Of a DNA stretch of 64,000 bases, positions 1,365 to 24,593 are shown in pieces. Within the stretch, counting starts at the first letter, position 1; each line of letters starts with the position of its first letter. The notes below the pieces were generated by a model. The model worked only from the letters and a program-made list of their open reading frames with translations, did not search any database and was not told the DNA's origin. The stretch is from the NCBI RefSeq assembly GCF_051903065.1, contig NZ_CP178440.1. One strand, 5' to 3'. Source of the stretch: Escherichia coli. Lineage in GTDB: Bacteria > Pseudomonadota > Gammaproteobacteria > Enterobacterales > Enterobacteriaceae. The position numbers and the translations under genes were made by a program.

Positions 1365-2184
1365 GGCACTGTTGCAAAGTTAGCGATGAGGCAGCCTTTT
1401 GTCTTATTCAAAGGCCTTACATTTCAAAAACTCTGCTTACCAGGCGCATTTCGCCCAGGGGATCACCATAATAAAATGCTGAGGCCTGGCCTTTGCGTAG
1501 TGCACGCATCACCTCAATACCTTTGATGGTGGCGTAAGCCGTCTTCATGGATTTAAATCCCAGCGTGGCGTTGATTATCCGTTTCAGTTTGCCATGATCG
1601 CATTCAATCACGTTGTTCCGGTACTTAATCTGTCGGTGTTCAACGTCAGACGGGCACCGGCCTTCGCGTTTGAGCAGAGCAAGCGCGCGACCATAGGCGG
1701 GCGCTTTATCCGTGTTGATGAATCGCGGGATCTGCCACTTCTTCACGTTGTTGAGGATTTTACCCAGAAACCGGTATGCAGCTTTGCTGTTACGACGGGA
1801 GGAGAGATAAAAATCGACAGTGCGGCCCCGGCTGTCGACGGCCCGGTACAGATACGCCCAGCGGCCATTGACCTTCACGTAGGTTTCATCCATGTGCCAC
1901 GGGCAAAGATCGGAAGGGTTACGCCAGTACCAGCGCAGCCGTTTTTCCATTTCAGGCGCATAACGCTGAACCCAGCGGTAAATCGTGGAGTGATCGACAT
2001 TCACTCCGCGTTCAGCCAGCATCTCCTGCAGCTCACGGTAACTGATGCCGTATTTGCAGTACCAGCGTACGGCCCACAGAATGATGTCACGCTGAAAATG
2101 CCGGCCTTTGAATGGGTTCATGTGCAGCTCCATCAGCAAAAGGGGATGATAAGTTTATCACCACCGACTATTTGCAACAGTGCC
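1365..2184 (-). mobile_element. IS26 copy 1 (820 bp), 14-bp terminal inverted repeats ggcactgttgcaaa / tttgcaacagtgcc
   Basis: Exact terminal repeats at both ends; internal ORF is Tnp26; flanking 8-mers cttgtacg and tctcaaaa differ, so no target site duplication. Confidence 0.95.
1417..2121 (-). CDS. tnpA: IS26 transposase (DDE, IS6 family)
   Basis: ORF translation [31 protein letters not shown]... identical in all three IS26 copies; ORF-track start lies 6 codons upstream of the usual Met. Confidence 0.95.
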
Positions 2185-9962: not shown

Positions 9963-10155
9963 TACAGGGGCAGGCGGTGGAGGCCGCCTGTCAGCCCGCG
10001 CGAAAACCCCTGGCAGGCTGACGCCTGCCGGAAGGGAAGCGGGCCACGCTGGCGCGTCGCCCGTTACCCTTCCCGTCTGTGATGTGTCTGACTCAGGAGT
10101 GTTTCTTTCTTATGTTGCGGAACTGTTCCTGATGTTGTTGTTGTTCCTTTATCTG

Positions 10156-10763
10156 CTGCTCTGATTCTGACTACTGCAGTGTTGTTCTGTCTGCCGGGCG
10201 CACCTTCGGCTCCCGGCTGCCTGGCGGCATCCGGTCGTCAGGCCCGACTCCGACAGGCAGCTGCTGGCGCACCTGCCAGTCTCCGCCGAACCCGCTGGCG
10301 CGGCTTCGGGCTGCCGCTACGGTCCGATGCGTGAAAACCCCGGGCTTGCAGCGACCGTTCCGGTCGCGCCGCCTCTGTCGCGCCGTGGCCTGCGCTCCTG
10401 GCATCCCGGCAAAAGGCCGCCGGGATGTAAGGGGCAACGCCGTTTCGCGCACGCGCTCTCCGTCGTTGCGGCGGGTCCCTGCTCATTGCCTGCCGGGTGC
10501 CACACACCCGTATGAGTCCCTGTCGCCGGGGGCTGATACAGCCACAACCTGCCGCACTGACTGTCCAGGGTAAATGAACAGCCCACAAAATTTTTTACCC
10601 AAAACCCGGTAAAAAATTTTGCGTTCTGCCCAGGACAGGTGCGTCAGGCCGTGGCAGTGATGCCCCTTGCGGCGAAGGTTCTCAAACGGGTGAAGTTCAT
10701 ACCACAGGGAATACAGCAGCAGGTTCCCGCGAAACGTCAAAACCGCGGCTCCCGAAACTCAAC
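10156..10763 (+). promoter_or_regulatory. Frpo/ssi-like structured repeat, copy A (candidate single-strand promoter / priming element)
   Basis: About 608 bp sharing long identical blocks with copies B and C; contains a 14-bp perfect inverted repeat at 10585-10598 / 10608-10621; ORFs called inside on both strands are artefacts. Confidence 0.65.
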
Positions 10764-11003
10764 GGGTGATGTTCTTTAAAAATCAGGATTTATTTCAGGC
10801 TCCGGCAATACGCATTTATTTGTTCTGTCAGTCATCCGGCTGGCAGGTAATGAGAACGCAGGAACAGAAGGAGGAAAACACCGTAGAACGTCAGACGCAG
10901 ATATGAAAAAAGCAGGTCAGGGACCTGCTTAATCCACGCCGTAAGAATTGCGCAACCAATTTTGACGGCATTGTTAACCAATTTGTCATAAGGAGTTTCA
11001 TTT

Positions 11004-13258: not shown

Positions 13259-13464
13259 AGACGCCGGGCAGGCGGGAGGATAAATGCCCGTCTGCCCGCG
13301 CCGGGAAAAGACCGCGCGCCGGTGGCGCTGAAAGGGGCCGCGCTCACGCGCCGCCCCTTTCATTACGCGGACGTTCTGATGGGGGCTTCTGTTTCTTCAT
13401 GCCTGTCATTTGTCTGTTACTGATGTTGTTGTTCCTGCTACTGCTACTGTTCTTCTTTTTCCTG

Positions 13465-14074
13465 CTGCTCTGATTCTGACTACTGCAGTGTTGTCCCGTC
13501 TGCCGGGCGCACCTTCGGCTCCCGGCTGCCTGGCGGCATCCGGTCGTCAGGCCCGACTCCGACAGGCAGCTGCTGGCGCACCTGCCAGTCTCCGCCGAAC
13601 CCGCTGGCGCGGTTTCGGGCTGTCGCTACGGTCCGATGCGTGAAAACCCCGGGCTTGCAGCGACCGTTCCGGTCGCGCCGCCTCTGTCGCGCCGTGGCCT
13701 GCGCTCCTGGCATCCCGGCAAAAGGCCGCCGGGATGTAAGGCGCAACGCCGTTTCGCAAACCGCGCTTCACGTCGTTGCGGCGGGTCCCTGCCCGTTGTT
13801 GTGTCCGGTGCCATTCACCTGTTTAAGCCCCTGTCGCCGGGGGCATAGACAGCCACAACCGTCTCCGCCAGTCCAGGGGTGAAATGCACATCCCGCAAAA
13901 CTTTTTGCCCGGAAGCAGGCAAAAACTTTTGCGGTCTGCCCCCGGACAGTCGTTTCCGGCCGTGGCAGTGATGCCCCTTGCGGCGAAGGTTCTCAAACAG
14001 GTGATGGTGAATACCGGAGGGAACAAAGAGCAGGTCCCCGCAAAACGTCAAAACCGCGGCTCCCGAAACTCAAC
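13465..14074 (+). promoter_or_regulatory. Frpo/ssi-like structured repeat, copy B, immediately upstream of ssb
   Basis: 610 bp, nearly identical to copy C (a few mismatches), more diverged from copy A; inverted repeat cgcaaaactttttgcc / ggcaaaaacttttgcg. Confidence 0.65.
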
Positions 14075-14115
14075 AGATGATGGGGGCTGAAAACATCAAC
14101 AGAAGGAGACACATC

Positions 14116-14951
<836 letters not shown>

Positions 14952-15016: not shown

Positions 15017-15591
15017 ATGTCAGTTACAGAGTCTAAGGCAAAAACGGAGCGTAAATCCAGCCGTAAACCTGCAAAAACGCAGGAAACAGTCCTGTCTGCC
15101 CTGCTGGCGGAGACGGCTGAAGTGAGCGTGCCGCTGGCCTCGCTGATTAAGTCACCGCTGAATGTGCGCACGGTGCCGTATTCTGCGGAGTCCGTCAGCG
15201 AACTGGCAGAGTCCATTAAAGGTGTCGGCCTGCTGCAGAATCTGGTTGTCCATGCCCTGCCTGGTGACCGTTACGGTGTCGCCGCAGGTGGTCGCAGGCT
15301 GGCGGCACTCAATATGCTGGCAGAGCGTGGCATCCTTCCGGCTGACTGGCCTGTCCGCGTGAAGGTCATCCCGCAGGAACTGGCGACGGCGGCATCGATG
15401 ACCGAGAACGGTCATCGTCGGGATATGCACCCTGCCGAACAGATTTCCGGATTCCGTGCAATGGCGCAGGAAGGCAAAACACCTGCACAAATCGGTGATT
15501 TGCTGGGCTATTCACCCCGCCATGTCCAGCGAATGCTGAAACTGGCAGACCTTGCGCCTGTCATCCTCGATGCGCTGGCAGAAGACCGCAT
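15017..15591 (+). pseudogene. ParB-like leading-region gene, N-terminal fragment interrupted by IS26 copy 2
   Basis: ORF runs without a stop into the IS26 left inverted repeat at 15592; remainder resumes in frame at 20742. Confidence 0.6.
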
Positions 15592-16411
15592 GGCACTGTT
15601 GCAAATAGTCGGTGGTGATAAACTTATCATCCCCTTTTGCTGATGGAGCTGCACATGAACCCATTCAAAGGCCGGCATTTTCAGCGTGACATCATTCTGT
15701 GGGCCGTACGCTGGTACTGCAAATACGGCATCAGTTACCGTGAGCTGCAGGAGATGCTGGCTGAACGCGGAGTGAATGTCGATCACTCCACGATTTACCG
15801 CTGGGTTCAGCGTTATGCGCCTGAAATGGAAAAACGGCTGCGCTGGTACTGGCGTAACCCTTCCGATCTTTGCCCGTGGCACATGGATGAAACCTACGTG
15901 AAGGTCAATGGCCGCTGGGCGTATCTGTACCGGGCCGTCGACAGCCGGGGCCGCACTGTCGATTTTTATCTCTCCTCCCGTCGTAACAGCAAAGCTGCAT
16001 ACCGGTTTCTGGGTAAAATCCTCAACAACGTGAAGAAGTGGCAGATCCCGCGATTCATCAACACGGATAAAGCGCCCGCCTATGGTCGCGCGCTTGCTCT
16101 GCTCAAACGCGAAGGCCGGTGCCCGTCTGACGTTGAACACCGACAGATTAAGTACCGGAACAACGTGATTGAATGCGATCATGGCAAACTGAAACGGATA
16201 ATCAACGCCACGCTGGGATTTAAATCCATGAAGACGGCTTACGCCACCATCAAAGGTATTGAGGTGATGCGTGCACTACGCAAAGGCCAGGCCTCAGCAT
16301 TTTATTATGGTGATCCCCTGGGCGAAATGCGCCTGGTAAGCAGAGTTTTTGAAATGTAAGGCCTTTGAATAAGACAAAAGGCTGCCTCATCGCTAACTTT
16401 GCAACAGTGCC
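15592..16411 (+). mobile_element. IS26 copy 2 (820 bp)
   Basis: Exact 14-bp terminal inverted repeats; flanking 8-mers gaccgcat and ttgtgaac. Confidence 0.95.
15655..16359 (+). CDS. tnpA: IS26 transposase
   Basis: Identical translation to the other copies. Confidence 0.95.
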   Translation: MNPFKGRHFQRDIILWAVRWYCKYGISYRELQEMLAERGVNVDHSTIYRWVQRYAPEMEKRLRWYWRNPSDLCPWHMDETYVKVNGRWAYLYRAVDSRGRTVDFYLSSRRNSKAAYRFLGKILNNVKKWQIPRFINTDKAPAYGRALALLKREGRCPSDVEHRQIKYRNNVIECDHGKLKRIINATLGFKSMKTAYATIKGIEVMRALRKGQASAFYYGDPLGEMRLVSRVFEM

Positions 16412-16907
16412 TTGTGAACCTTATTGATGATCGTACCGATGATATTTTGTATGGAAGGCCATGGTACAAAAAATGGACGATGGGGAGAATGATCTCATTT
16501 AACACATCTTCGCCTTACGCCAATGCTAATGGAAGATTAAGAAAGTGGGCAAAAAATAATAATATCAGTTTAAAGTAAGCATCAGAATGAAATTATATGG
16601 ACGAAAAATTTCTCTATTAACTGCACCATGGCTGGTAAAATCTCTTACCCTTGATGAAAATACAGGTTCCGTTACTGTTACGGTCGGAATCGCTGAAAAT
16701 ACCTATAACCATCGTAAATGGTTCCACTTTGATACCTGCCTGTTCATTACCCAGTGCGCCGTAAAGCCCCGTCCTTCAGGGCGTGGAGGATGTCAAATTA
16801 GTAGAAGCCGATGCTGGGAGCAATGTTCCACTACGGGAAGCTGAATATGGCGTTCTGAGCCTTCCTACAATTATCGGGGAAGCCCCATCTGCGTACTCCG
16901 GATTTTT

Positions 16908-17035
16908 GTTTATATGATCATGGGATTATATGATTATATCATTTTGTAACTATTTGATTATGTAATTTTATGATTGCATAATTTTATGAATATGAGATTA
17001 TTTGAATACTTGGCAGAGGTACTATTTGAACAAAG
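16908..17035. promoter_or_regulatory. Array of about 7 degenerate AT-rich direct repeats (TT(A/T)TGA(T/A)T) upstream of parA; candidate centromere/operator
   Basis: ttatatgatca, ttatatgattat, tttgattatgt, ttttatgattg, ttttatgaata, ttatttgaata, tatttgaaca read at roughly 11-12 bp spacing. Confidence 0.5.
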
Positions 17036-17046
17036 GGGAGAGGTGA

Positions 17047-17670
17047 ATGCCTAACGTGATAGCATTTTTAAATGGTAAGGGGGGGGTGTCTAAGACAACC
17101 TCGGCAGTTAATATTGCTACTGCTCTTGCTCGTAAGGGTTACAAAGTTGTTGTTGTGGATACCGATCCCCAGGGAAGTGTTAGTAACTGGTATGATGACA
17201 GTAAGTGTGTTTTTGATGTAGCGGAAGCTACGGCAGAAAAAGAAATTTACCGTTTGCGGAAGGCGCTTCCTTTGCACGATTTTATCATTATTGATGGTGC
17301 TGCTGCGATTTCGGCGATATCGGCGGCTGCTGTTATGGTTTCTGATCTTGTTATTATTCCAGTTACTCCTTCGCCGCTTGATTTTGCTGCGTGTGGCGCG
17401 ATATTGGCAGTGATAGAAGCTCGTCAGGATTTACGCCCGGTGATTGCTCGCTTTTTGATTACTAAAAAAGTACAGCAAACGCATATGTTATCTTTGCTGA
17501 AAGAATCTATTGCAGAAACAAGCATACCAGCATTAAAAACAGGAACGTCGTACAGGCAGTCATATATAAGATCTATGCTGGATGGTGGTACTATATTTGA
17601 TACAAAAGATAGTGCTGCTAAAGGTGAAATATCAGTTATTACAGAAGAAATACTTGGACTATTAAAATGA
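17047..17670 (+). CDS. ParA-family partition ATPase (small, type Ib-like)
   Basis: Deviant Walker [11 protein letters not shown] at N-terminus, 207 aa. Confidence 0.85.
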
Positions 17671-17873
17671 GTAAAATGAAACTTGGGAATCATAAGGCAA
17701 CAAACACTGCTCTGGATGCACTGAAGAAACCTGCGGGAGCAACCAGAAAGTTACAAATGAATATTCCAGAAGAGTTACATCTTGCATTTAAATTAGCTTG
17801 TGTGGAAGATGGCATTGATATGACACAGGTAAATATAGAACTCATTCAAAACTGGTTAAAGAGTCGTAACTGA
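17667..17873 (+). CDS. Small partition partner protein (ParG-like, probable ribbon-helix-helix centromere binder)
   Basis: 68-aa ORF overlapping parA stop; basic N-terminal tail then short structured domain. Confidence 0.5.
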
Positions 17874-18182
17874 TAGTGTTTCAGCCAGTCGTAATCTGCG
17901 ACGCAAACAAAAAGCGCTGTCCCGCAAGCTCAATGCGGCACTCAACATCCGGCAAAAAGGAATACAGGAACTACAGGCGACGGGACTCGTCGTCACTGCC
18001 CATGGAGACCAGCGTAAATCCGTCGTACAGAAGAGGATAAAATGGGAGAGCAGTTATCGATTCCCTATCCGGGCAGCCCGTTTACGGGCCGTAAGTAACG
18101 AAGTTGGATGCAAATGTCAGATCGTGTGCGCCTGTTAGGGCGCGGCTGGTAAGAGAGCCTTATAGGCGCATTTGAAAAACCT

Positions 18183-18206
18183 CCGGCTATGCCGGAGGAT
18201 ATTTAT
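18183..18206. terminator. Bidirectional rho-independent terminator hairpin (cctccggc ... gccggagg) flanked by A/T runs
   Basis: Perfect stem with T-run on the minus strand about 80 nt downstream of the adhesin stop. Confidence 0.5.
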
Positions 18207-18284
18207 TTATCGAGTTCGGTGACCGCCTGGACGGTCACTTCTGAGACAAGGCATTTACACAGAATCTTAAACAGGCTCGCTAAT

Positions 18285-19775
18285 TTACCACCCAATGGCA
18301 AAACCAGCTCCTAAGTTTGTATCACCACCATTGTTCCATGATGTGTTGACTCGTATGTTAGCATTCTGGCTCACTTTATATTGAACTCCGGCTGCGATTG
18401 CTTGAGCATCACGATAATGCCCCACGCCCATACCAAATGAAAAGCGCTCATTATTAACATAAGGAATTGATGAAATAGCGGTAACTCCGGCAATACCCGC
18501 ATTAGCACGCTTTTCGACTCTATCTATTTTTTTATTCATTTGTGAGAATCTTTGCTCATTTTTCTGCTGTAAATCATTTAATGTTTTATTGAAGTTTTTA
18601 CCTAATGTATCAACGCTAGATGCAGTATATTTGTTTGCCATTTCTAGAGTGTTTAAATCACCTTGTTCACGGAGTCTTTTCTCTTCATTGATTGCACTTG
18701 TTCTGGCTTTTTTTTCTTCATTTATTCTTGCAACTACTGATTTGCTGGGGTCTTTTTCTATATTTTTAATTTCATCTTCACTCATGCCTATAGCTTTAGT
18801 GACAACATCTAATTGGGACATATTCACAGCATCTGTAGGATTTACGCCCCCGGCAAGATTCGTGATTCTTCTGTTTATCATGGGCTCTGTCGTTGTTGCT
18901 TCCCTTCCTAAAGATACAACACCATTCTTACTATCTGTGTTCTCTACAGCGGTATATTTAGATACAGTATCATCATATTGATTATGCGTTTTCGATCTTG
19001 CCCCAAGAGCAATACTGCCTTTTGAATTAGACTCAGATAAATATCCAATGGAAACAGAATCAGTTTCCTGAGAGGCTGAATATGATCCTAATGCAATACT
19101 ATTTTTACCAATGGAATGAGACTCTAATCCTATGGCAGAACTGCCAGAGCCAATTGATAATGATTGACTACCCAATGCTGTACCAAATTCACCAACCACC
19201 GTCGAAAAGGAACCTACTGCCGTTCCTTCAATATTGTGGGAACTTGATTTATATCCCATTACAGATGACGCATATTGATTCCCATATTTCTCCTTAGCAT
19301 GAGGATCAACAGATGAGTCAACAGAAATATGTCCATCAGCGGATACTGTTATTTTTTTACCACTCACATCTAAGGATGAATTATTTTCAGGCAATTTAGT
19401 TACTGAAGCTTTGTTACCGATTAAAGTTGAATAGTTTCCTTCTGAATCAATTTTCGATCTGGATCCAACTATAGTCGAAAAAGTCCCTGCTTCTGTTGCA
19501 GAATCGTATCCTATTACTACTGATGCTCCTGCTCCTCCTTTTTCTGGTATATTCAAAGACTTAGAATTTGGACCTATTACTACTGAGAAATTTTGTTCTG
19601 ATCTTGTAGCATCACCAATTCCCTTACCAATAGCGATACTGCCAATACCTGAAGATTCTGTATTATCCGCACCAATAGCTATAGATGAGTAGCCTTTAGG
19701 ATTAGCAGCAAAAGAACAAAGGCTAACACCAGATAATGTTAATAGTATAGATGATAAAATTAATTTATTATTCAT
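18285..19775 (-). CDS. Trimeric autotransporter adhesin (YadA-like head repeats, coiled-coil stalk, C-terminal beta-barrel anchor)
   Basis: Signal peptide MNNKLILSSILLTLSGVSLCSFA, repetitive SIAIG/SxGxxS head motifs, heptad-rich stalk, C-terminal anchor ending GAGFAIGW. Confidence 0.8.
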   Translation of the reverse strand: MNNKLILSSILLTLSGVSLCSFAANPKGYSSIAIGADNTESSGIGSIAIGKGIGDATRSEQNFSVVIGPNSKSLNIPEKGGAGASVVIGYDSATEAGTFSTIVGSRSKIDSEGNYSTLIGNKASVTKLPENNSSLDVSGKKITVSADGHISVDSSVDPHAKEKYGNQYASSVMGYKSSSHNIEGTAVGSFSTVVGEFGTALGSQSLSIGSGSSAIGLESHSIGKNSIALGSYSASQETDSVSIGYLSESNSKGSIALGARSKTHNQYDDTVSKYTAVENTDSKNGVVSLGREATTTEPMINRRITNLAGGVNPTDAVNMSQLDVVTKAIGMSEDEIKNIEKDPSKSVVARINEEKKARTSAINEEKRLREQGDLNTLEMANKYTASSVDTLGKNFNKTLNDLQQKNEQRFSQMNKKIDRVEKRANAGIAGVTAISSIPYVNNERFSFGMGVGHYRDAQAIAAGVQYKVSQNANIRVNTSWNNGGDTNLGAGFAIGW

Positions 19776-19921
19776 AGCAACATATCCCACCAAAGTAGAT
19801 AGATTATCGTTATTCCTCGATAAATAAATTGCAATGTAAGATACATTAATCTTAACAATGTGTTAACATAAGAGGCTGTTAACACATTTAGTTTATAACA
19901 TAAAACATCATAAATATTAAG

Positions 19922-20741
19922 GGCACTGTTGCAAATAGTCGGTGGTGATAAACTTATCATCCCCTTTTGCTGATGGAGCTGCACATGAACCCATTCAAAG
20001 GCCGGCATTTTCAGCGTGACATCATTCTGTGGGCCGTACGCTGGTACTGCAAATACGGCATCAGTTACCGTGAGCTGCAGGAGATGCTGGCTGAACGCGG
20101 AGTGAATGTCGATCACTCCACGATTTACCGCTGGGTTCAGCGTTATGCGCCTGAAATGGAAAAACGGCTGCGCTGGTACTGGCGTAACCCTTCCGATCTT
20201 TGCCCGTGGCACATGGATGAAACCTACGTGAAGGTCAATGGCCGCTGGGCGTATCTGTACCGGGCCGTCGACAGCCGGGGCCGCACTGTCGATTTTTATC
20301 TCTCCTCCCGTCGTAACAGCAAAGCTGCATACCGGTTTCTGGGTAAAATCCTCAACAACGTGAAGAAGTGGCAGATCCCGCGATTCATCAACACGGATAA
20401 AGCGCCCGCCTATGGTCGCGCGCTTGCTCTGCTCAAACGCGAAGGCCGGTGCCCGTCTGACGTTGAACACCGACAGATTAAGTACCGGAACAACGTGATT
20501 GAATGCGATCATGGCAAACTGAAACGGATAATCAACGCCACGCTGGGATTTAAATCCATGAAGACGGCTTACGCCACCATCAAAGGTATTGAGGTGATGC
20601 GTGCACTACGCAAAGGCCAGGCCTCAGCATTTTATTATGGTGATCCCCTGGGCGAAATGCGCCTGGTAAGCAGAGTTTTTGAAATGTAAGGCCTTTGAAT
20701 AAGACAAAAGGCTGCCTCATCGCTAACTTTGCAACAGTGCC
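19922..20741 (+). mobile_element. IS26 copy 3 (820 bp), same orientation as copy 2
   Basis: Exact terminal inverted repeats; flanking 8-mers atattaag and accggaag. Confidence 0.95.
19985..20689 (+). CDS. tnpA: IS26 transposase
   Basis: Identical translation to the other copies. Confidence 0.95.
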   Translation: MNPFKGRHFQRDIILWAVRWYCKYGISYRELQEMLAERGVNVDHSTIYRWVQRYAPEMEKRLRWYWRNPSDLCPWHMDETYVKVNGRWAYLYRAVDSRGRTVDFYLSSRRNSKAAYRFLGKILNNVKKWQIPRFINTDKAPAYGRALALLKREGRCPSDVEHRQIKYRNNVIECDHGKLKRIINATLGFKSMKTAYATIKGIEVMRALRKGQASAFYYGDPLGEMRLVSRVFEM

Positions 20742-22029
20742 ACCGGAAGTACAGACCATTCGTCGTCTGGTGACCGAAAGTGAAGTGGCGGTGGCGGGGA
20801 ACAGTAAATTCCGCTTCGTGGGGGCTGATGCCTTCTCGCCAGACGAACTGCGCACCGATTTGTTCAGCGATGACGGGGACGGTTATGTCGACCGCGTGGC
20901 GCTCGATGCTGCCCTGCTGGAAAAACTCCAGGCTGTCGCAGAGTTCCTTCGGGAAGCCGAGGGCTGGGGATGGTGCGCCGGACGCATGGAGCCTGTCGGT
21001 GAATGCCGTGAAGATGCCCGGGCATACCGCAACCTGCCGGAGCCGGAAGCGGTGCTGACGGAGGCGGAAGAAGAACACCTGAACGAACTGATGGCACGTT
21101 ACGACGCGCTGGAAAACCAGTGTGAGGAATCTGACCTGCTGGCAGCAGAAATGAAGCTGATTGACTGCATGGCGAAGGTCAGGGCGTGGACGCCGGAGAT
21201 GCGTGCCGGAAGTGGCGTGGTGGTGTCCTGGCGTTACGGTAATGTGTGTATCCAGCGTGGTGTGCAGTTGCGCAGTGAGGATGATGTGGCTGACGACGCT
21301 GACCGCACGGAACAGGGGCTGGAGAGCGCGTCAGTGGAGGAAATCAGTCTGCCGTTGCTGACTAAACTGACCTCAGAGCGCACGCTGGCAGTCCAGGCAG
21401 CACTGATGCAGCAACCGGACAAATCCCTGGCACTGCTGGCATGGACGCTCTGCCTGAATGTGTTTGACAGCAAAGCGCACTGTAGTCCCGCCAGAATTCG
21501 CCTGGCATGTGAGCATTATGCGCTGACCAGCGATGCACCGTCGGGGAAGGAAGGTGCCGCATTCATGGCGCTGATGGCAGAACACTCTCGTTTTGCTGCC
21601 CTGCTGCCGGAAGGATGGGAACGGGATATGACGACGTTCCTGTCACTCAGCCAGGAGGTGCTGTTATCCCTGCTCAGCTTCTGTACCGCGTGCAGTCTTA
21701 ACGGTGTCCAGACCCGAGAGTGTGGTCACACGTCACGCAGTCCGCTTGACTCGCTGGAAACCGCCATCGGCTTTCACATGCGCGACTGGTGGCAGCCGAC
21801 AAAAGCAAACTTCTTCGGACACCTGAAAAAGCCGCAGATTATCGCAGCTCTGAATGAGGCAGGACTGTCCGGTGCCGCACGGGACGCGGAGAAGATGAAG
21901 AAAGGCGATGCGGCTGAACATGCAGAGTTCCATATGAAAGACAACCGCTGGGTGCCTGGCTGGATGTGTGCACCACGTCCACAGACGGATACCACTGAAC
22001 GCACCGATAACCTGGCTGATGCCGCCTGA
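20742..22029 (+). pseudogene. ParB-like leading-region gene, C-terminal fragment (continues the frame interrupted at 15591)
   Basis: Open frame begins exactly at the IS26 boundary; joining 15591 to 20742 gives codon ata and an uninterrupted frame. Confidence 0.6.
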
Positions 22030-22083
22030 TGAACAACCACACCGCCCCGCCGGAGACGGGGCGGCAGCAAGGGAGATACCGTG

Positions 22084-22518
22084 ATGAAAACTGAACTGAC
22101 CCTGAATGTATTACAGACCATGAGTGCACAGGAATATGAAGATATCCGGGCTGCCGGAAGTGATGAACGCCGTGAGCTGACACACGCCGTGATGCGGGAA
22201 CTGGATGCGCCGGACAACTGGACGATGAATGGCGAGTACGGCAGCGAGTTCGGCGGCTTTTTCCCCGTCCAGGTCCGTTTCACGCCTGCCCACGAACGTT
22301 TTCACCTGGCGTTATGTTCACCGGGCGATGTCTCTCAGGTCTGGGTGCTGGTTCTGGTGAATGCCGGTGGTGAGCCGTTTGCGGTGGTTCAGGTGCAGCG
22401 GCGGTTTGCACCGGAAGCTGTCAGCCATTCACTGGCACTGGCGGCGTCACTGGATGCGCAGGGGTACAGCGTTAACGACATCATTCATATCCTGATGGCG
22501 GAAGGAGGTCAGGCATGA
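22084..22518 (+). CDS. psiB: Plasmid SOS inhibition protein PsiB
   Basis: [32 protein letters not shown]... matches PsiB as recalled. Confidence 0.9.
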
Positions 22519-23234
22519 GCGCACGTTCACAGGCACTGGTTCCTCTCAGCACAGAGCAACAGGCCGCATGGCGGGCGGTGGCGGAGACCGAAAAACGCCG
22601 CCATCAGGGTAACACGCTGGCTGAATATCCGTATGCGGGTGCGTTTTTCCGCTGTCTGAACGGAAGCCGCAGGATATCGCTGTCTGACCTGCGATTTTTC
22701 ATGCCGTCCCTGACCGCAGAAGAACTGCACGGCAACCGTCTTCAGTGGCTGTATGCCATCGATGTGCTGATTGAAACACAGGGCGAGGTCTGCCTCCTTC
22801 CCCTTCCCGGCGATGCAGCAGAGCGCTTGTTCCCGTCGGTGCGGTTTCGTGTCAGGGAACGCAGTCGCCATAAATCCGCGCTGGTCATGCAGAAGTACAG
22901 CCGCCAGCAAGCGAGGGAGGCAGAGCAGAAAGCCCGTGCGTACCAGGTGCTGGTTGCTCAGGCTGAAATCGAACTGGCATTTCATTCACCGGAAACAGTC
23001 GGAAGCTGGCATGCACGCTGGAGTGACCGGGTGGCAGAGCATGACCTGGAACCCCTGTTCTGGCAGTGGGGCGAGCGTTTTCCGTCACTGGCCGGAATGG
23101 AACGCTGGCAGTGGCAGGATATGCCATTCTGGCAGGTTATCGCGGAAGCCAGTCTGGCAGCCAGAGAGGCCGGTCATGCTGTCCGTGAGATGGAGCGGTG
23201 GATGGTGCCGAACAAACTCCGGGAGGCAGCGTGA
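22515..23234 (+). CDS. psiA: PsiA
   Basis: 239-aa ORF overlapping psiB stop, conserved psiB-psiA arrangement. Confidence 0.85.
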
Positions 23235-23455
23235 TGCGGCAATAATCACACGGATTACCCGTGAACTGGTTGAACGACCAGATTATTTTCAGGGAAAGTG
23301 AGTGTGGTCAGCGTGCAGGGATATGAGCTATGATGTGCCCGGCGCTTGAGGCTTTCTGCCTCATGACGTGAAGGTGGTTTGTTGCCGTGTTGTGTGGCAG
23401 AAAGAAGATAGCCCCGTAGTAAGTTAATTTTCATTAACCACCACGAGGCATCCCT

Positions 23456-23672: not shown

Positions 23673-23943
23673 CAACCTGGAGGCGGGCGCAGGCCCGCCT
23701 TTTCAGGACTGATGCTGGTCTGACTACTGAAGCGCCTTTATAAAGGGGCTGCTGGTTCGCCGGTAGCCCCTTTCTCCTTGCTGATGTTGTACGGGCATGA
23801 ACAACCTGACTTCAGGAAGGTCGTTTCCCTTCAGGAACGGGGATGAACGCGCGCCTGCGGCGCCCGTTCTTTTCCCCCGCCTTCTCTGGTTATGGCCTGT
23901 CAAAAATCACATCACCTTCCCTGTGATTATTCTCTTTTTCTTC

Positions 23944-24553
23944 CTGCTCTGATTCTGACTACTGCAGTGTTGTCCTGTCTGCCGGGCGCACCTTCGGCTC
24001 CCGGCTGCCTGGCGGCATCCGGTCGTCAGGCCCGACTCCGACTGGCAGCTGCTGGCGCACCTGCCAGTCTCCGCCGAACCCGCTGGCGCGGTTTCGGGCT
24101 GTCGCTACGGTCCGATGCGTGAAAACCCCGGGCTTGCAGCGACCGTTCCGGTCGCGCCGCCTCTGTCGCGCCGTGGCCTGCGCTCCTGGCATCCCGGCAA
24201 AAGGCCGCCGGGATGTAAGGCGCAACGCCGTTTCGCAAACCGCGCTTCACGTCGTTGCGGCGGGTCCCTGCCCGTTGTTGTGTCCGGTGCCATTCACCTG
24301 TTTAAGCCCCTGTCGCCGGGGGCATAGACAGCCACAACCGTCTCCGCCAGTCCAGGGGTGAAATGCACATCCCGCAAAACTTTTTGCCCGGAAGCAGGCA
24401 AAAACTTTTGCGGTCTGCCCCCGGACAGTCGTTTCCGGCCGTGGCAGTGATGCCCCTTGCGGCGAAGGTTCTCAAACAGGTGATGGTGAATACCGGAGGG
24501 AACAAAGAGCAGGTCCCCGCAAAACGTCAAAACCGCGGCTCCCGAAACTCAAC
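23944..24553 (+). promoter_or_regulatory. Frpo/ssi-like structured repeat, copy C
   Basis: 610 bp nearly identical to copy B (offset 10479 bp); followed by an RBS and an ORF. Confidence 0.65.
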
Positions 24554-24593
24554 AGATGATGGGGGCTGAAAACCAGAGAGAGGAGAAAGCAGG

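Follow-up and report, generated by a model that had tools for sequence, protein, structure and literature searches.

The 64,000-nucleotide stretch of Escherichia coli DNA analyzed here (contig NZ_CP178440.1; in the following termed the window, with positions counted from its first letter) covers the leading region of an IncF-type (MOBF/MPF_F) CTX-M-55 conjugative plasmid, in which the gene yubM, also known as parB2, is split by a 5150-bp module consisting of two copies of the insertion sequence IS26 and a 3510-bp passenger. We observed that 96 bp of yubM are missing beside the module, that the complete passenger occurs without IS26 in two chromosomes and that both outer junctions of the module are present in independently assembled draft genomes. 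The structure is best explained, with a probability of about 0.8, as an IS26 pseudo-compound transposon in yubM/parB2 whose passenger stems from a foreign island and whose formation involved an adjacent deletion and at least three IS26 events in total. The transposon is new and is distinguished by its unusual non-resistance cargo and by the shortness of the adjacent deletion; mechanism and element type are well known.

The two IS26 copies bounding the module (Table 1) are 820 bp long, 100% identical and directly oriented, with a start-to-start distance of 4330 bp. They are identified as IS26 by perfect terminal inverted repeats of 14 bp (GGCACTGTTGCAAA/TTTGCAACAGTGCC) and by a single transposase gene, tnp26, of 705 bp (234 aa; start at IS position 64), and a chance repeat was ruled out. 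A passenger (16412-19921) bounded by two directly oriented IS26 copies constitutes a pseudo-compound transposon, and the translocatable unit (TU) implied by this arrangement measures 4330 bp. An earlier note on this DNA had already described two direct IS26 copies around a ParA/ribbon-helix-helix (RHH) pair and a trimeric autotransporter adhesin, and both the coordinates and the domains were corroborated here. Its observation that the outer 8-mers differ (GACCGCAT on the left, ACCGGAAG on the right), speaking against a simple transposition with 8-bp duplication, was confirmed as well. Furthermore, no pair among the six 8-mers flanking the three IS26 copies of the window matched, either directly or as reverse complement. 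IS26 often lacks the 8-bp duplication once later deletions or exchanges have taken place, and its absence does not argue against the identity of the element.

All three copies in the window carry GG to AA at IS positions 613-614 when compared with the IS26 of NZ_CP082958.1, from which they are 2 nt apart, resulting in the substitution G184N of the transposase Tnp26. G184N is the substitution described for IS26-v1 (PMC9412624), and an enhanced activity of the G184N variant was reported (PMC12540391). The assignment to the IS26-v1 type is based on G184N; a third nucleotide difference is mentioned for v1. G184N has been reported for the more active variants IS26-v1/v3; the closely related plasmid NZ_CP082958.1 carries a standard G184 IS26 at a collinear position, and the IS26 of plasmid pM172-1.1 (NZ_CP058715.1) is G184N too, with one additional synonymous difference.

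The interrupted gene belongs to the ParB/RepB/Spo0J family and is located between ssb/DUF905 and psiB. Its intact counterpart in LC763833.1 and NZ_CP060746.1 comprises 1959 bp (652 aa) and is annotated as yubM or as "ParB/RepB/Spo0J family partition protein", in agreement with the Pfam domains ParB_N (residues 43-131) and HTH_ParB (136-222) and with a TIGR00180 score of 65 bits vs. a cutoff of 58.45. It corresponds to parB2 of the conserved ssb-parB2-psiB-psiA cluster (PMC8406263); under the name yubM no relevant literature was found. Alignment to the intact yubM of LC763833.1 confirmed the previously proposed split exactly at 15591/20742 and assigned both fragments to one gene, and it unveiled that bases are missing at the junction. 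The right fragment begins at gene nt 672, and nt 576-671 (96 nt, CACCACCG...GGCGGTAA), which are absent there, were found nowhere else in the window. The adjacent deletion that had been considered possible is thus real. It removed 32 codons (residues 193-224) and with them the C-terminal portion of HTH_ParB, so that in the window copy this domain breaks off at residue 191/192. As both flanks are identical to one and the same allele (575 + 1143 bp), the two halves originate from one gene copy, and as divergence from this allele starts at 21885, 1.1 kb off, the mosaic boundary does not coincide with IS26.

Joining the two flanks yields an open frame of 620 codons, as the earlier note had pointed out, but not the intact gene, and the frame is open because 96 equals 32 x 3, a 1-in-3 outcome. 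The conclusion that the interrupted frame can be restored did not hold: none of the known IS26 reactions reunites the flanks, as loss of a TU leaves one IS26 behind (PMC4676283), and since TU loss or recombination between the IS26 copies would result in one IS26 plus the 96-bp deletion, yubM is not restorable. In practical terms, an open joined frame across an IS26 structure is no proof of an intact target. With respect to a natural origin of the shortened frame, PLSDB was queried with the joined flanks (138 nt), for which no fewer than 4410 records reached a coverage of 80% or more. The best 30 of these were all two-piece matches spanning 234 bp (138 + 96), and no natural 96-bp-deleted yubM allele was among these best 30.

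Both outer junctions give rise to chimeric open reading frames (ORFs). On the left side, the yubM frame enters IS26 for 52 nt, resulting in a 208-aa ORF ending at 15643 (YubM residues 1-191 plus 17 IS26-encoded residues), and on the right side a GTG inside IS26 (20737) opens an ORF into the 3' part of yubM with a 430-aa product. Three NCBI draft assemblies (GCA_050025895.1, GCA_050025295.1 and GCA_050025155.1) contain the 208-aa chimera, and the 430-aa chimera was found on a 2464-bp contig of GCA_050025895.1 which is 100% identical to window positions 20666-23129. The junction-bearing draft contigs extend 76-77 nt into IS26. Evidently, a small lineage carries both outer junctions. When 72,556 PLSDB plasmids and 5,426 complete E. 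coli genomes were searched with 120-bp outer-junction queries (at least 80% coverage), neither outer junction was detected; the inner-left junction was likewise absent from the 72,556 PLSDB plasmids. Exact product look-ups gave no record for a 444-aa TTG-start product, for stubs of 59 aa and 54 aa from the clbS gene cut at the left cargo end or for the 443-aa product that a non-deleted precursor would encode.

In five other assemblies one contig each stops within yubM at nt 573-575 (window approximately 15589-15591), exactly at the left IS26 junction, on a different allele represented by a 191-aa 'partial' protein of Salmonella enterica, and thirteen further contigs stop at nt 581-584. None of these contig ends shows IS26 bases, and an IS26-tailed product on the Salmonella allele was without record in the exact look-ups. 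The ends could reflect insertions that recurred at this site or assemblies that broke at points of divergence between co-resident alleles.

The passenger differs clearly in composition from its surroundings (GC 0.34-0.48 vs. 0.54-0.60 in the flanks). In PLSDB and the complete E. coli genomes most of it was found only in pM172-1.1, which covers 16651-19921 at 99.9%, and the adhesin half was found in one Taiwanese plasmid. The exact adhesin protein occurs in 253 blocks of the assembly collection, 25 of these 253 with contigs >1 Mb. Finally, the whole 3510 bp were found contiguously in CP189772.1 (4.09 Mb) and CP186539.1 (4.24 Mb) at 99.97% with one mismatch, and in both the sequence runs on past the two cargo boundaries without any IS26. 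The native context in these chromosomes is an island of approximately 14 kb between two IS4-family transposase genes; its neighbors are genes of the umuD/umuC type, one for a 3'-5' exonuclease and one with a MobI domain, suggesting the variable region of an SXT/R391-type integrative conjugative element (ICE). Further contents of the island are a VapD-like gene, DUF5397, an HTH/Gp49 pair resembling a toxin-antitoxin system and a gene similar to lolC. On the basis of near-identical YadA proteins labelled Proteus mirabilis, with fitting chromosome size and GC, the island-bearing chromosomes (approximately 4.1-4.2 Mb) probably belong to this species.

The cargo represents one contiguous piece of this low-GC island, and IS26 cut it at both ends, on one side inside clbS/dfsB and on the other in an intergenic region. 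The ClbS/DfsB gene is full length in the chromosomal island of CP189772.1 (172 aa, PF08020); an exact 38-mer across the uninterrupted clbS site gave no match in GTDB contigs (one genome per species). Relatives of the cargo genes parA and parG with 95% identity are backbone genes of E. coli plasmids of approximately 30 kb. In pM172-1.1 an IS91-family element is located exactly where the homology to the cargo begins (16650/16651), and the island was therefore struck independently by different mobile elements in different plasmids.

For the mechanism the established chemistry of IS26 has to be considered. IS26 makes only cointegrates, and entry of a TU by copy-in results in a pseudo-compound transposon with a flanking 8-bp duplication (PMC9602291). 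If a TU targets a resident IS26, the original 8-bp repeats end up around the whole structure, as was shown experimentally (PMC4894685). As no duplication is present here and TU targeting of a resident IS26 would keep one, an extra adjacent deletion is required, by which a duplication is split between the deleted circle and the remnant (PMC9602291). The missing 96 bp beside an IS26 end and the lack of a duplication consequently fit a course in which IS26 and cargo entered and one adjacent deletion took away 8 + 96 bp.

From this we infer at least three IS26 events, for which the sequence allows more than one order. IS26 would have entered yubM by a cointegrate-type reaction, the passenger would have arrived either as a TU or in the form of a larger cointegrate with subsequent trimming, and one of the IS26 copies would have caused an intramolecular copy-in adjacent deletion, thereby removing one copy of the 8-bp duplication together with 96 bp of yubM (104 bp). 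The first insertion may have hit nt 575, in which case GACCGCAT was duplicated, or nt 672, in which case ACCGGAAG was duplicated, and the deletion may have occurred before or after arrival of the cargo. A relative with TTTGCAACAGTGCC followed by GACCGCATCACCAC would place the original insertion at the left site with a later rightward deletion, and one with GGCGGTAAACCGGAAG followed by GGCACTGTTGCAAA would place it at the right site.

Several points weigh against this reconstruction. No precursor, i.e. a single IS26 in yubM with duplication or an undeleted transposon, was found in PLSDB, in the 5,426 complete E. coli genomes or by exact-product look-ups, and neither the inner-left junction in PLSDB nor the look-ups of the 59-aa and 54-aa clbS stubs led to a donor in which IS26 adjoins one of the cargo boundaries. 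RecA-dependent exchange between IS26 copies would leave the same sequence as the Tnp26 reactions. Furthermore, the plasmid continues outside the 64-kb window, with probable further IS26 copies, and matching 8-mers there would indicate a different history. Within the 64 kb no inversion or exchange partner was visible among the IS26 flanks.

A somewhat unlikely alternative, which differs from the preferred explanation only in the mode of cargo arrival, is the fusion of an IS26-bearing donor replicon or an ICE-derived circle at yubM, after which successive adjacent deletions would have left 3.5 kb of the donor and removed the 96 bp of yubM. The cargo indeed resembles the remnant of a replicon or island, as parA-parG are backbone-type genes of plasmids of approximately 30 kb (95%), both cargo ends are arbitrary cuts (clbS/dfsB and intergenic), and IS26 always forms cointegrates (PMC9602291). 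However, this course needs more deletion events than capture of a TU, and no intermediate with more donor DNA was found.

It is quite improbable that the module arose from two parental plasmids with separately duplicated IS26 insertions, at yubM nt 575 in one and at nt 672 in the other, whose left and right flanks were joined by homologous recombination between the IS26 copies. The contigs of the other allele stopping at nt 573-575 would, if their ends were IS junctions, hint at repeated interruption at this site, and the backbone is mosaic from 21885 onward. Nevertheless, IS26 would have had to insert twice independently, at a distance of 96 bp and with equal orientation, the flanks match one allele for 575 + 1143 bp with the mosaic boundary 1.1 kb away and not at IS26, no such parent was found in PLSDB or the complete E. 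coli genomes, and for the other allele an IS26-tailed product is without record. Recombination of diverged plasmids at IS26 was rejected, because both flanks are perfect to one allele and divergence begins 1.1 kb away.

The earlier proposal that TU targeting of a pre-existing IS26 alone accounts for the missing duplication, and that loss of the module restores the host frame, is very improbable: the direct IS26 copies, the differing outer 8-mers and the in-frame flanks would agree with it, but the 8-bp repeats of the resident IS26 would be kept around the whole structure (PMC4894685), copy-in would also duplicate (PMC9602291), 96 bp of yubM are gone, and TU excision leaves one IS26 (PMC4676283). 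A contig misjoined across IS26 repeats, with the module not truly inside yubM, has just as little probability. Misassembly is classically caused by repeats such as IS26, of which the plasmid contains at least three identical copies, but both outer junctions occur in independent short-read contigs, which makes misassembly very unlikely, and although these contigs, reaching 76-77 nt into IS26, do not by themselves place the cargo between these two IS26 copies, a single locus is favored by the loss of the 96 bp and by flanks from the same allele.

The IS26 pseudo-compound transposon in yubM can be compared with Tn4352 and Tn6020, with which it shares two direct IS26 copies around a passenger and a TU of one IS26 plus passenger; the chemistry was assumed to be as previously described (PMC4196232, PMC4894685, PMC9602291). 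In contrast to them, its passenger contains parA-parG and a YadA-like adhesin gene instead of a resistance gene, no flanking 8-bp duplication is present and 96 bp of the target are deleted. In Tn4352B, a GGG gave high-frequency excision (PMC4676283), whereas here a single G is found beside the left end of copy 2. Like other IS26 adjacent deletions (PMC9602291), the loss in yubM lies directly at an IS26 end and took the flanking duplication with it, but it is very short (96 bp plus the 8-bp repeat), and either copy may have made it, at an earlier or a later stage. The interrupted gene resembles parB2 of pED208 in its position between ssb/DUF905 and psiB and in its N-terminus with ParB_N and HTH_ParB. 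Here the gene is split with loss of residues 193-224, whereas the pED208 mutant was a clean deletion without transfer or SOS phenotype (PMC8406263).

With regard to the consequences, yubM is presumably inactivated irreversibly, its leftovers being a 191-residue stub containing ParB_N and a 428-residue C-terminal part, both as chimeric ORFs. It had been suggested that the loss of this ParB-like protein may affect establishment, for which little support was obtained: in pED208, deletion of parB2 affected neither transfer nor the mating-induced SOS response, whereas deletions of psiB and ssb raised the SOS response (PMC8406263). The loss of the YubM protein is therefore probably tolerated. Transcription from ssb to psiB-psiA would have to cross 5.15 kb of foreign DNA containing a convergent gene and a terminator-like hairpin, and some polarity is likely; such polarity on psiB/psiA appears a more plausible cost than the loss of YubM. 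Possible gains would be a second partition cassette, of the ParA/ParG type, and an adhesin gene.

A more far-reaching reading, which we consider rather doubtful, is that the hyperactive G184N form of IS26 moved a functional partition cassette together with an adhesin gene, the latter under the control of a hybrid promoter built from the IS26 end, out of a Proteus-type chromosomal island, and that the insertion was retained for plasmid stability or host colonization, loss of yubM and weakened early expression of psiB/psiA being cheap. The first-transferred region of an epidemic-type CTX-M-55 IncF plasmid would in that case have received non-resistance cargo. Irrespective of such a benefit, the module indicates that IS26 can shuttle stability and adhesion genes, and not only resistance genes, between a probable P. 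mirabilis island and E. coli-type plasmids. A conserved ParB-like gene of the leading region can be destroyed in a plasmid still found in several isolates, in agreement with the results for parB2 of pED208. Neither the type of cargo nor the loss of yubM alters current understanding.

The contents of the cargo are listed in Table 1. ParA carries a visible KGGVSKT motif and reached 172.7 bits with NF041546, just below the cutoff of 180, and parG, whose start overlaps the parA stop by 4 nt, follows directly downstream and was recognized as ParG. We take the pair to be probably of the ParF/ParG type (type Ib), as in TP228; a 68-aa ParG of the RHH type is common to both, and a putative small deviant-Walker ParA and the iterated repeats upstream would agree with this type. 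It differs from this type in a ParA just under the NCBIfam cutoff, in upstream repeats which are only a candidate centromere, and in being cargo of an IncF plasmid that already has partition genes of the parM/stbA type. The repeats upstream of parA may represent a partition site or an operator.

The adhesin combines YadA anchor and stalk with weak YadA_head repeats (0.007-0.014), and its N-terminus resembles a Sec signal; the exact protein is on record as 'MULTISPECIES: YadA-like family protein [Enterobacterales]'. With the C-terminal YadA anchor, the coiled stalk and the head repeats it matches the YadA family, but it is short (496 aa), and with none of the named NCBIfam adhesin models does its score come near the cutoff. 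The hybrid promoter candidate toward the adhesin gene shows 9/12 consensus matches approximately 130 nt upstream of the adhesin start, the number of sites in the scan being at chance level. The consensus scan gave no site for a hybrid promoter that would lead out of IS26 copy 2 toward the 3' fragment of yubM. The hairpin between parG and the adhesin gene is a candidate bidirectional terminator; its position is the sole argument, with a site total equal to the chance expectation.

Table 1 Features of the IS26 module and of the interrupted gene, in order of position in the window.
Feature	Position	Strand	Characteristics
Third IS26 copy	1365..2184	-	reverse complement identical to copies 1 and 2; beside blaCTX-M-55
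yubM/parB2 5' fragment	15017..15591	+	codons 1-191 plus 2 nt; 0 mismatches/575 bp vs. LC763833.1
IS26 copy 1	15592..16411	+	tnp26 15655-16359; G184N variant
clbS/dfsB 3' stub (ClbS/DfsB family, DUF1706)	16412..16578	+	approximately 55 codons, cut by IS26; 98.3% to 3' end of pMS20659 ClbS/DfsB gene
AT-rich iterated repeats	16910..17005	+	approximately 16-bp period, approximately 5 copies; just upstream of parA; Tandem Repeats Finder array 16924-17005, 66% matches
parA, putative small Walker-type partition ATPase	17047..17670	+	207 aa; NF041546 ParA_partition 6.8e-51; annotated ParA family in pM172-1.1
parG, ribbon-helix-helix partition protein	17667..17873	+	68 aa; PF09274 1.9e-11, RHH_10
IS200/IS605 remnants (tnpB and tnpA fragments)	17923..18098	+	pM172-1.1 PGAP pseudogenes mapped via 99.9% alignment
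GC-rich hairpin with T-runs on both strands	18180..18198	.	between parG side and adhesin 3' end; consensus scan
YadA-like trimeric autotransporter adhesin gene	18285..19775	-	496 aa from ATG; YadA_anchor 2.2e-12, YadA_stalk 4.1e-08
Candidate hybrid promoter toward adhesin gene	19907..19934	-	-35 TTGCAA in left inverted repeat of IS26 copy 2, 16 nt, -10 TATGAT in cargo
IS26 copy 2	19922..20741	+	tnp26 19985-20689; G184N variant
yubM/parB2 3' fragment	20742..22029	+	third base of codon 224 to stop; first 1143 bp identical to LC763833.1

The gene order of the window comprises parM/stbA, antirestriction genes, ssb (14077-14655), DUF905, the interrupted gene, psiB (from 22081), psiA, hok and the tra genes. 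At the window's left end blaCTX-M-55 is located at 120-995 on the minus strand, approximately 370 bp left of the third, inverted IS26 copy (1365-2184), which is part of the resident IS26 population of the plasmid. This copy is flanked by CTTGTACG and TCTCAAAA without duplication, and to its right the sequence runs directly into plasmid backbone collinear with NZ_CP082958.1. The window begins inside the resistance region, and more IS26 copies probably lie outside of it.

A repeat of approximately 640 bp is present in three copies (10139-10771, 13448-14082 and 23927-24573) with a mutual identity of 88-99%, one of them directly upstream of ssb; these probably represent the single-strand promoter (Frpo/ssi) repeats of F-like plasmids. 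In the low-complexity C-terminal part of ssb, 87 bp (14507-14593) are missing in NZ_CP060746.1, where ssb is annotated as two coding sequences, and are present in LC763833.1. Compared with both LC763833.1 and NZ_CP060746.1, a dense cluster of substitutions, preceded by 1143 identical bases, extends from 21885 to 23326 and reaches from the 3' end of yubM across psiA; its start at 21885 is a recombination boundary of the backbone, unrelated to IS26.

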